Assembly: GCA_000165345.1 (NCBI GenBank)
Contig: CM000435.1
Location: 480,001-544,000 of the forward strand
Direction of reading: 5' to 3'
Length of the DNA: 64,000 nt
The translations under genes were made by a program, and so were the position numbers. Of this stretch, positions 25,448 through 47,086 are shown in pieces; the first letter of the stretch is position 1, and each line of letters opens with the position of its first letter. The notes under the pieces are model-generated. The model ran no database searches. It worked only from the letters and a program-made list of their open reading frames with translations, and was not told the origin of the DNA.

Positions 25448-25529
25448 GGTGTGGTGACCGAGTGGTTAAGGTGGTGGCCTGCTAAGCCATTGTGCTCTGC
25501 ACGCGCGTGTTCGAATCACGCCCACATCG
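25448..25529 (+). tRNA. tRNA-Ser (anticodon GCT/GCU), 82 nt with a long variable arm
   Basis: Acceptor stem GGTGTGG / CCACATC with discriminator G, D-arm ACCGAGTGGTTAAGGT, anticodon loop CTGCTAA and T-arm GCGTGTTCGAATCACGC. Near-identical to metazoan tRNA-Ser-GCT. Followed by a T-run. Confidence 0.85.
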
Positions 25530-43765: not shown

Positions 43766-44414
43766 TTAATTTTTCTTGTAAATCGTGTTAAGAAGTAGTT
43801 TGATCAAATAACCAACAAACAAAGCCGAGAATGTTGTCAAAAGAGCAACAATCCAGATTGCAAGTTTGCATTCACCAATAGGAATATTTATATAGGGATA
43901 TTTTGGGTCTCCCGTTGGAACCTTAGTAATACTTATCCTGCATTCCTTAAGCTTGAAAAACTCATCTATTCAAATTTTTGCTTTTATGGGTTCTTCAAAG
44001 ATTTTAAAACTTACCTGGAGATGAACATTGACAATGACTTTTATGGACCCACAAACATTGTTTATGGAAATCATGGTCACAAATATAAACTCCAATTTCA
44101 CATCCCTGAGGGAAAAAAGTTGCATGCAAATACGGCAAAATGAAAAAAAATACACTTACCTTTACAGTATCCTTCCCATCAAAGCCTTGAGAATTATAAC
44201 ATTTTGGTCTGGAGTCTATTCTAATCCTATCTGAGAATATTTGAATCTTGAACTTATGAGAAATAATTGGAAGTACTTCCAAAGAAAGACGCGAAAGTTC
44301 GTTGTCTGGGATACCCTCATTAATGGGAATGAACGATGGTATCACTGTAGATTGAGTTGAAATGAAGTCCCATATTAGAACACAAATAATAATAAAGAAA
44401 ATAGTCTTTTTCAT
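43766..44414 (-). CDS. Small type-I membrane protein, proposed 3 exons (44414-44160, 44105-44015, 43965-43766), about 181 aa; possibly TRAP-beta/SSR2-like
   Basis: Signal peptide MKKTIFFIIICVLIWDFIST. Intron 1 (44159-44106, GTAAGT..TCAG) is 54 nt and in frame. The apparent stop of the track ORF sits inside a perfect CCAG|GTAAGT donor. A 49-nt intron to an AATAG acceptor opens 66 further codons encoding a TM helix (LAIWIVALLTTFSALFVGYLI) and a basic tail ending YKKN. The 2-exon alternative (stop at 44004) is not excluded. Confidence 0.45.
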
Positions 44415-44550: not shown

Positions 44551-45462
44551 ATGGGCTTCAGCGGAGATAAAATAGAATCTTCGTGTAATATTCGGTCTCA
44601 ACGAAGGCTTAGAACTGATACTGCAGAGGCAGTTTTTGGCAATTTTTGGGAAGCACCAAAAAATTCAAATTTTCACTCCAGGGGAGTGAAAAAAAATAAA
44701 CAAAACTATGAACATGAGATAGCTGAAAATTCTACCCAGAAGTCAGACTCAGATTCCTTAGATAAAAAGTTTAATATTACAAACTTGGACACTCAAGAAA
44801 GATTGAGCTTTTATGAGTCACAAGGAGCAGAGCCATACCTTTCTAAGTACCCAACTATAACTTCTATACTTACAGAAACACAACCTAAAAGGTGGATGAT
44901 AATGTTTAGTAGAGCTCAATCTTCAAGTTCTAGGGATTCTAAAGATGGAAAGAATAATAAAAAGAATTCTAAAATAAATTCTTCAGGTTTAACAAACGAA
45001 GATTTACCGTTTAACAAAATGCAATTTATATGGAGTTCTGAGTTGGATGAACACAAAAGGGTCAAGTTAAATAACAAAAACAGTCCAAGTTCACAATCTT
45101 TATTATCTGACCCAAATGACCTTTCACCAATCGTAATTAATTTTCCCCACCCTATTCAGCTTCAGAATATTTCTATTCCATACGAGGTTCTAGACCCAAG
45201 GTCCGTTCCATGCGGCTCATTTATTTGGTGGGATAGAAGAGTATGGGAATATAATTTTGTTTATATGGCCAGAAGACTATCTACTAACGATGAAAAAAGT
45301 CGTAAAAAACTCAATATAGAAAACCCAGTAACTCCAAAGAAACAGATTAGAGCTTTAGGGGAAAGCAACGGACAAAGTTCTAAGCGTTCAAGACCAAAAG
45401 TAGATGCAAACCCCAAACTAAATCAGAAATCAAAGTCTCCTAAGAATGTAATTAAGCAATAA
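44551..45462 (+). CDS. Hypothetical low-complexity Ser/Lys/Asn-rich protein (303 aa)
   Basis: ATG-initiated long ORF with no recognisable domain. Confidence 0.5.
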   Translation: MGFSGDKIESSCNIRSQRRLRTDTAEAVFGNFWEAPKNSNFHSRGVKKNKQNYEHEIAENSTQKSDSDSLDKKFNITNLDTQERLSFYESQGAEPYLSKYPTITSILTETQPKRWMIMFSRAQSSSSRDSKDGKNNKKNSKINSSGLTNEDLPFNKMQFIWSSELDEHKRVKLNNKNSPSSQSLLSDPNDLSPIVINFPHPIQLQNISIPYEVLDPRSVPCGSFIWWDRRVWEYNFVYMARRLSTNDEKSRKKLNIENPVTPKKQIRALGESNGQSSKRSRPKVDANPKLNQKSKSPKNVIKQ

Positions 45463-45530: not shown

Positions 45531-47086
45531 TTAATCTTCATCGCTTTCACTAATTAATCTGTTTAACTTTCTTTTAACTGGTCTCATTGTAGGCTCGGGC
45601 GATTTAGTCTGTAATGAAGGAGTATTCTCAACAGTAGAAGATTCAGAATCTTTGTTTTCTTCTATCTTGTTCACTTTGATTTCACTCGACTGATTAGGAG
45701 CTTCAGAACTGTTTTCAGCGAGATCTTTTTCAGCTTGACTACTCAAGTTCTTAGATACTGGAGCTCCCCATTCACTAATAATTTTCGTTTCTTCTATTTT
45801 AACCTTCTTTTTATCACAACTCAAAGAAGAATCTACTTCTTTGCGAGTTTCTGACTTTTGTTTTTCTGATAAAGGTGGCCTAGAGGGAGTTTCATGAGTG
45901 TTTTTTCTTTCGTTTGATGCAGTCTTAAAAAAGCCATCCAAACATGTCTGTGAAGTCTTATTTTTGCTTTTCTTGATTCTTTCGCAATAGCTATTGACTC
46001 TAGCCTCATTGAAATTTTGTTCTTTTATAAGCCACTCCATAAGTTCTTCATACTTGGGGTTTGACCACTTAATCAAATCTTTTATTTGATTATTTTTTGA
46101 TACTAGGGGATTCTTAAAGAGCTCTCTGACCTTTGAGAAATCGAAGTTTCCTGGTATAGGATTTTTTGTCTGATCAATGTTTTTTAAAATGCTTTCAATA
46201 TTATGGTATTTTTTGAGTAATTTATAGGCTGTACTTGTTCCTATTCCTCTTATCGTTCCACAATAATCGCACCCACTCAAGATACAAAGATCAATAAATT
46301 GGTCCATATTTATATCAAGCTCAGAAAGGATCAAAGATAGCTTTATAATTTGCATACCATTTTTTTGTTTGCTTGGCGACTTATCAGTTATTTTGTTTGA
46401 AGATTCTGAAAAATTTAATTGTTTTATTTGGATTGGCGTACCAAATGTCAAAGAGTCTGCATCTTCTGTGACAACTCCATAAACTAGACCATCTTTACAT
46501 AGTTCTGCGCACTGTGCTTCCGCCTCTGATGGGGCATCTATACATGGCATTCCAAGAAAACCCAACAGTTTCTTAACATCTTCTACTTGCTTTTTTGTTA
46601 CATGTATAGTTCTAACAGATTGTTTTTTGATAAGCTCTTCATCTCCAATTTCTTGAGCTTTCTCTAGTTCAGCAAGTGCTTTCTCTCTTCTTTCATCTCT
46701 TTTTGTCAGTTCATCTTTCTTCATCTCTGGGGGAGCACCATCAAATACAAATACAGGTTTAATTCCTGCTTCTAGAAGTCTAGTGGTTCTCGAAAGCATC
46801 CCATTTATATGACTTGTGGATTCACCTGAAGAATTGGTTAAGTTACCCCACTGGCTTCCTTCTCTAATTGCTGCCAAAAACTGGTAAATCCACATACTAG
46901 CGTCTATTGCTACTCTTTTCCCTAGCAAGGAGCCGATTCCCTATAAAATTAAAGGAATTAGAAGTAATATTTAATATAGATCTCTAACTTTGTAATATAG
47001 TCTATTTAAAATGTTCAACTTACCTGCTGTTGGATACTTTTCGGAGCATTATCTGCAAGAAACTTAGTTAGGCCTTTAATTCCCAT
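45531..47086 (-). CDS. FEN1: Flap endonuclease 1 (FEN1), 2 exons (47086-47024, 46940-45531)
   Basis: The 5' micro-exon encodes MGIKGLTKFLADNAPKSIQQQ (human [21 protein letters not shown]). An 83-nt intron (GTAAGT..TTTTATAG) follows. Exon 2 begins GIGSLLGKRVAIDASMWIYQF, and XPG-N/I domains are colinear with human FEN1. The track ORF begins at an internal TTG. Confidence 0.92.

Follow-up and report, generated by a model that had tools for sequence, protein, structure and literature searches.

The locus and its gene content

The window analysed here, a stretch of 64,000 nucleotides that is eukaryotic in character with a GC content of 33.5%, derives from chromosome 7 of Cryptosporidium parvum, and the gene at the centre of this analysis, encoded on its minus strand, is cgd7_2120 (CPATCC_0007910). 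In the four-gene order FEN1, cgd7_2130, cgd7_2120 and RPL8, the divergently oriented neighbour cgd7_2130 (44551-45462, plus strand) is a small gene encoding 303 aa with no Pfam family; its product varies in length across species (303, 300, 268, 239 and 255 aa), and its transcript is very low in the available qPCR data (PMC3305300). Beyond it lies the FEN1/XPG gene, whose open reading frame (45531-46928, minus strand) comprises 465 aa, while the annotated product has 490 aa and the gene a range of 1,556 nt, which implies a short 5' intron; a GTAAGT hexamer is located just upstream of this reading frame (47018-47023, minus strand). In the C. felis record (L003:1-201), the p24/EMP24 gene upstream and FEN1 are apparently fused into a single 578-aa product with PF01105 and XPG domains, and the two are separate genes in other species. 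ARAGORN and Rfam find a single RNA gene in the whole window, a tRNA-Ser (GCT) at 25448-25529 on the plus strand.

Read without splicing, cgd7_2120 presents an open reading frame of 136 aa (44414-44004) ending in TCT CCA GGT AAG TTT TAA. The evidence assembled below makes it highly likely that the gene instead consists of three exons separated by two short spliceosomal introns, and that it encodes a 181-aa type-I membrane protein belonging to an eight-cysteine family and distinct from TRAP-beta. As delimited by sequence, translation and conservation, exon 1 (44160..44414, minus strand) comprises codons 1-85 and encodes a signal peptide (approximately residues 1-22), a conserved helical segment (IP.NEGIPD.ELSRLSLEVLP) and the first invariant cysteine, C72. 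Intron 1 (44106..44159, minus strand) has 54 nt, runs from GTAAGT to CAG in phase 0, and is both in frame and free of stop codons in C. parvum. Exon 2 (44015..44105, minus strand; 91 nt) encodes the core of the cysteine-rich domain, GCEIGVYICDHDFHKQCLWVHKSHCQCSSP, with the invariant residues C87, C94, C102, W104, C110 and C112. Intron 2 (43966..44014, minus strand) has 49 nt, runs from GTAAGT to ATAG in phase 1, and holds the TAA (44004..44006, minus strand) that terminates the unspliced frame. Exon 3 (43766..43965, minus strand; 200 nt including the TAA stop at 43768-43766) supplies residues 115-181 through a split Asp codon and 65 further codons, and encodes a juxtamembrane beta-hairpin (C124...C148), a transmembrane (TM) helix and a basic tail. 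The spliced coding sequence thus amounts to 546 nt and 181 aa, with the C-terminus ...GECKLAIWIVALLTTFSALFVGYLIKLLLNTIYKKN (...IYKKN).

This organization had been proposed by the first-pass annotation, which postulated a hidden third exon encoding a TM helix and a basic tail ending in KKN; sequence, translation and cross-species comparison bear out that exon, and re-splicing reproduces every figure given for it (introns of 54 and 49 nt, 66 added residues, 181 aa). One detail requires amendment: the apparent stop, described as lying within CCAG/GTAAGT, is indeed intronic, but it begins two bases past the GTAAGT hexamer and is no part of the donor consensus. Both donors, at 44159 and 44014 on the minus strand, carry GTAAGT, a motif whose number alone is uninformative in this window (32 occurrences against 24.7 +/- 5.3 expected). 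The reverse primer published for qPCR of cgd7_2120 matches positions 44166-44186 exactly.

Comparative evidence for splicing

Orthologous DNA was compared from C. hominis, C. canis, C. felis, C. bovis and C. ryanae, in all five of which the order of FEN1, the small gene cgd7_2130, cgd7_2120 and RPL8 is kept. The best protein match to cgd7_2120 is a 181-aa 'putative integral membrane protein' of C. hominis, 97% identical over its full length. Both introns begin with GT and end with AG at identical alignment columns in C. parvum and all five other species, and their lengths vary without being confined to multiples of three: intron 1 measures 54 nt in C. parvum and, in the order in which the five species are named above, 55, 51, 42, 50 and 49 nt; intron 2 has 49 nt in both C. 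parvum and C. hominis and 48 nt in each of the remaining species. Part of the variation in intron 1 (window 44106-44159) resides in a T-run, which has one additional base in C. hominis and one fewer in a C. parvum-like Logan contig (P0008), so that the unspliced reading frame differs between isolates.

Coding constraint is lost inside the introns and regained downstream of them. Pairwise comparison of C. parvum, C. canis, C. felis, C. bovis and C. ryanae gives mean identities of 0.65-0.78 for the exons and 0.46-0.50 for the introns, with intron 2 at 0.46, and 43 of the 54 columns of intron 1 are variable. In exon 3, variable columns make up 0.48, 0.31 and 0.94 of the first, second and third codon positions, respectively, the same coding signature as in exons 1 and 2 (for exon 2, 0.29, 0.10 and 0.80), a pattern by which exon 3 is judged to be under codon-level purifying selection. 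Furthermore, two distant homologues, P0018 and P0021, are each encoded by one uninterrupted open reading frame, colinear with the spliced product across both junctions. Considered at the level of sequence comparison, this cross-species evidence is decisive for both introns.

The comparison also bears on the possibility that the 136-aa unspliced (or intron-2-retaining) product is real and perhaps regulated, in which case cgd7_2120 would chiefly yield a secreted, soluble, cysteine-rich protein devoid of a TM helix and the 181-aa form would be minor. Unspliced C. parvum mRNA is translatable, since the frame runs through intron 1 without a stop and closes in intron 2 after three further residues; alternative splicing has been reported in C. 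parvum (Baptista et al., 10.1101/2021.01.29.428682), and the 48-nt intron 2 is annotated as coding in C. canis, C. felis and C. ryanae. Nevertheless, the in-frame state of intron 1 is not conserved, since lengths of 55, 50 and 49 nt break the unspliced frame in C. hominis, C. bovis and C. ryanae; the intron sequences evolve almost freely; exon 3, strongly constrained as protein, holds two of the eight invariant cysteines (C124 and C148); and the full TM-anchored protein is encoded by the intronless homologues. We therefore regard a principal role for the short form as very improbable. Some intron retention may occur, and in C. parvum it would yield a secreted 136-aa product.

The three-exon model of cgd7_2120 thus draws its junctions from comparative evidence and from evidence-based public annotation (Baptista et al., preprint 10.1101/2021.01.29.428682), and the junctions are to be read as supported on that basis; a search for transcript contigs carrying the exact 181-aa protein returned annotated genome records only. 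Distant members of the family located at L006:6001-6627 (SRR29713746) and L007:3601-4170 (JGI 3300076040) are likewise intronless, and, to judge from such distant members, both introns may be specific to the Cryptosporidium lineage.

Annotation status and mis-spliced records

The third exon is correct but already known. An identical 181-aa protein has been deposited for four C. parvum assemblies (e.g., QOY40529.1 = CPATCC_0007910; CPHLJ_7g2120), the repaired model is present in the IOWA-ATCC annotation, and 181-aa orthologues stand in GenBank for C. hominis, C. tyzzeri and C. meleagridis, so that a comparison with orthologous gene models, which the first-pass annotation had put forward as a check, comes out in favour of the exon. 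Since the exact protein is already public, the hidden exon is not new, and the corrected model adds little for C. parvum itself. The 136-aa model belongs to the 2004 Iowa II annotation (XP_628388.1 / Q5CYJ2), now obsolete although still in databases, and XP_628388.1 corresponds exactly to the unspliced reading frame, as expected from the earlier proposal that an in-frame 54-nt intron masks the splicing.

The error is of the same type as other introns that were missed in the 2004 Iowa II annotation and mended by RNA-seq-based re-annotation (PMC4637869; 10.1101/2021.01.29.428682): Isaza et al. (2015; PMC4637869) raised the number of introns in C. parvum from 237 to 688, and Baptista et al. (preprint 10.1101/2021.01.29.428682) introduced more than 1,500 gene-model updates. 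Unlike the usual missed intron, however, both introns of cgd7_2120 are masked, one by being in frame and stop-free and the other by ending the reading frame. With intron 1 in frame and stop-free, an unspliced read of the gene looked intact, and with the stop in intron 2 only three codons beyond the junction, the truncated 136-aa frame seemed complete.

Outside C. parvum, erroneous records persist. The C. canis (L002:1501-2145), C. felis (L003:1501-2136) and C. ryanae (L005:1501-2143) entries each comprise 197 aa, the 48-nt in-frame intron 2 having been read as 16 spurious residues, and the 186-aa C. bovis entry (L004:1501-2141) places the acceptor of intron 1 18 nt too early, thereby adding the residues SMFIVQ. 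Truncated, unspliced records exist for chipmunk genotype I (139 aa), C. ubiquitum (92 aa), C. meleagridis UKMEL1 (116 aa) and, in one entry, C. hominis (112 aa).

The old 136-aa model can also mislead work that builds on it, for example by ranking cgd7_2120 among the most divergent genes. The supplement to Isaza et al. (2015; PMC4637869) places cgd7_2120, with an identity of 0.885 and a dS of 0.29, among the genes for which C. parvum and C. hominis are less than 90% identical. With correct splicing, the proteins of the two species show 97% identity, and over the whole gene 16 of approximately 650 positions differ; the listed divergence is probably a gene-model artefact.

Protein architecture and predicted structure

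Hydrophobic segments are found at both the N- and the C-terminus of the cgd7_2120 protein, and a sequence scan detected no N-glycosylation sites. Modelled by AlphaFold with eight Cryptosporidium sequences, the protein reached a pLDDT of 53.6; the addition of distant members raised this to a pLDDT of 83.6 with a pTM of 0.70. The model contains helices at residues 2-21 (signal peptide), 37-54 and 152-180 (TM), and pairs of hairpin strands at 82-95/101-108 and 122-132/140-150. The TM helix, L150-I170 (43802..43864, minus strand), is delimited by hydropathy, the AlphaFold helix 152-180 and invariant columns, and is followed by the 11-residue cytosolic tail KLLLNTIYKKN (43769..43801, minus strand), which carries lysine at positions -2 and -3 only and no canonical KKXX or KXKXX signal. 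Hydropathy and the model agree with the architecture initially proposed, namely a signal peptide, a luminal domain, a single TM segment and a short tail.

On this architecture, the mature protein would comprise, after a putatively cleavable N-terminal signal peptide, an extracytosolic domain of approximately 125 residues, one TM helix and the 11-residue basic cytosolic tail, with the extracytosolic domain predicted to consist of a short helical segment and two long beta-hairpins bearing eight invariant cysteines. The protein would be inserted co-translationally into the endoplasmic reticulum (ER), four disulfides would form in the lumen, and it would stay membrane-anchored as a non-enzymatic binding or accessory module in the secretory pathway or at the parasite surface. 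In the predicted secondary structure, C94 faces C102, C124 faces C148 and C87 lies near C110; judged from this strand register, the pairs are probably C94-C102, C87-C110, C72-C112 and C124-C148, which would arrange the four disulfides as a ladder.

A small eight-cysteine family

Searched exhaustively with a profile, a set of 1.84 billion representative proteins yielded only 12 relatives, from Cryptosporidium species, from Chromera velia (two proteins, A0A0G4FD94 and A0A0G4HV93) and from Logan and JGI assemblies, with E-values for the non-Cryptosporidium members of 1.7e-21 to 1.2e-5. Across 16 sequences, 14 residues are invariant (C72, G86, C87, C94, C102, W104, C110, C112, C124, P144, G146, C148, A151 and W153), the last five of which form a motif before the TM helix, P144-x-G146-x-C148-x-x-A151-x-W153. 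The cgd7_2120 product has these invariant residues, the TM helix directly after them and the short basic tail, and is accordingly a member of a small, uncharacterised eight-cysteine membrane family of Cryptosporidium, Chromera velia and some eukaryotic assemblies. A homology search started from the distant subclade returned Logan proteins only, and the search results suggest that the family is absent from Toxoplasma and Plasmodium.

Weak Pfam matches to RING fingers (E 0.005-0.2, below the cut-off, in two of the 16 members) were considered and rejected, because the domain is extracytosolic and the matches are driven by the spacing of cysteine and histidine residues. A search of the BFVD viral structure library with the model gave no match.

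Relation to TRAP-beta

The first-pass annotation had taken the product to be TRAP-beta-like, and the general resemblance to TRAP-beta (SSR2, PF05753; PDB 8b6l_F) in size, cleavable signal peptide, C-terminal TM helix, short basic tail and KKN ending is evident. The human protein does have 183 aa and does end in KKN (KTKKN; sequence identical to PDB 8b6l_F), exactly as stated there. If this resemblance reflected descent, cgd7_2120 would encode a highly diverged orthologue of this Sec61-associated ER type-I subunit, its sequence drifted beyond recognition; the close lengths (181 and 183 aa), the same order of signal peptide, luminal domain, TM helix and short basic tail, the shared KKN ending and the canonical KKXX ER-retrieval endings of some distant family members (KKLV, KKTY) would all be compatible with such an origin.

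Direct comparisons nevertheless offer no sequence, profile or structural similarity between SSR2 and the family. The Pfam TRAP_beta profile matches none of the 16 members at E <= 1 and not the C. parvum protein even at E <= 10, against 5.5e-70 for the human SSR2 control. In hhalign, the 16-sequence family profile aligns with human SSR2 at a probability of 0.15% (E 0.39) over 9 columns, all of them within the TM helix, and in hmmsearch the same profile finds nothing among all PDB sequences at E <= 10. Used as a structural query, the model with a pLDDT of 83.6 retrieved no TRAP-beta chain among the best 50-60 PDB matches listed, though 8b6l, 8bf9 and 8b5l were among the structures searched; its predicted fold, a helix followed by disulfide-stapled hairpins, is not the luminal fold of TRAP-beta in ribosome-Sec61-TRAP structures. 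Eight cysteines are invariant in the family and none is present in SSR2, and SSR2 has two N-glycosylation sites while the Cryptosporidium family members have none.

A further difference concerns the position of the lysines in the tail. The SSR2 ending KTKKN is a KXKXX motif with lysine at -3 and -5, whereas IYKKN has lysine at -2 and -3; the shared KKN is therefore superficial and positional only. The Cryptosporidium tail conforms to neither KKXX nor KXKXX and varies by species (YKKR, YEKK, YKVH). In the non-Cryptosporidium members, a basic residue (K/R) occupies position -4 in all eight and also position -3 in five, where Cryptosporidium has Tyr at -4; the endings KKLV and KKTY hint that proteins of those lineages could undergo ER retrieval.

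Expression data point in the same direction. In the time course of Mauzy et al. (2012; PMC3305300 supplement), cgd7_2120 was near zero at 2 h and at 1e-4 to 7e-4 (relative units) at 24-72 h, an increase of approximately 100-fold, and the adjacent RPL8 peaks at 6-12 h (PMC3305300). This late-rising transcript is not the profile of a housekeeping translocon component. A literature search on TRAP in Cryptosporidium and Apicomplexa and on the cgd7_2120 gene identifiers yielded nothing relevant. Altogether, the resemblance to TRAP-beta reduces to similar length and type-I topology, the latter a feature common to very many unrelated proteins, and orthology has in our estimation almost no likelihood. 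The first interpretation was thus half right: its exon structure holds and its TRAP-beta identity fails.

Relation to cystine-knot and EGF-like modules

A second candidate assignment sees in the ectodomain a membrane-tethered cystine-knot-like or EGF-like module that late-stage parasites (merozoites or gametes) would use as an adhesin or a ligand, the protein then not being an ER resident. None of the best 50-60 PDB matches listed by Foldseek is significant, and cystine-knot growth factors (coagulogen, NGF, NT-3, BDNF, VEGF, NBL1 and PDGF) predominate among these weak matches. An EGF or knot pattern could accommodate the spacing C-x6-C-x7-C-x7-C-x-C-x11-C, and a C-x-C motif is present. The approximately 100-fold rise in transcript from 2 h to 24-72 h would favour a late-stage role, and one Chromera paralogue is labelled 'Kazal-like' in UniProt. 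That label was examined separately and discarded, Pfam giving no Kazal match.

The likeness to the cystine-knot growth factors (NGF and the neurotrophins, VEGF/PDGF, DAN and coagulogen) lies in long, twisted, disulfide-linked beta-hairpins and the C-x-C element; the cgd7_2120 protein differs from them in being membrane-anchored, in its much tighter cysteine spacing and in a pairing that, from strand register, would be ladder-like. The structural matches are far below significance, with E-values of at least 0.46, probabilities of at most 0.08, TM-scores of at most 0.24 and rmsd values of about 10-13 A, and those to NGF, VEGF and coagulogen, within the best 50-60 listed, fall at E 0.46-5. There is no family profile match either, as the Pfam EGF, Kazal and cystine-knot models match none of the 16 members, and the strand register of the model suggests a nested disulfide ladder and not a knot. 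Tails of apicomplexan adhesins carry an acidic/Trp motif, which the cgd7_2120 tail lacks, and the basic residue at -4 in the non-Cryptosporidium members fits ER retrieval better than display as an adhesin. On balance, this assignment appears unlikely.

Biological significance

The reading that best accommodates the evidence takes the cgd7_2120 product to be a membrane-anchored module stapled by disulfides, presumably without enzymatic activity, that would act in the secretory pathway or at the parasite surface; a literature search found no localisation, interaction or knockout data for the gene. A bolder proposal, which we put forward tentatively as a possibility that may well prove wrong, is that the protein represents an ancient and undescribed membrane-anchored disulfide-rich domain with no relative of solved structure, common to Cryptosporidium and the chromerids, apparently missing or unrecognisable in Toxoplasma and Plasmodium, and possibly endowed with a specific role.

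The immediate consequences concern annotation. The cgd7_2120 protein should not carry a TRAP-beta label, and a consistent three-exon model can be transferred to the mis-spliced records of C. canis, C. felis, C. ryanae, C. bovis, C. ubiquitum and the chipmunk genotype. With regard to biology, if the proposal of an ancient domain is true, the invariant juxtamembrane P-x-G-x-C-x-x-A-x-W motif and the late rise in transcript could be signs of a specific role, for instance that of an accessory subunit within a membrane complex or of a factor acting in late or sexual stages. As a conserved eight-cysteine membrane protein shared with Chromera, the cgd7_2120 product is a reasonable, if not urgent, candidate for tagging.
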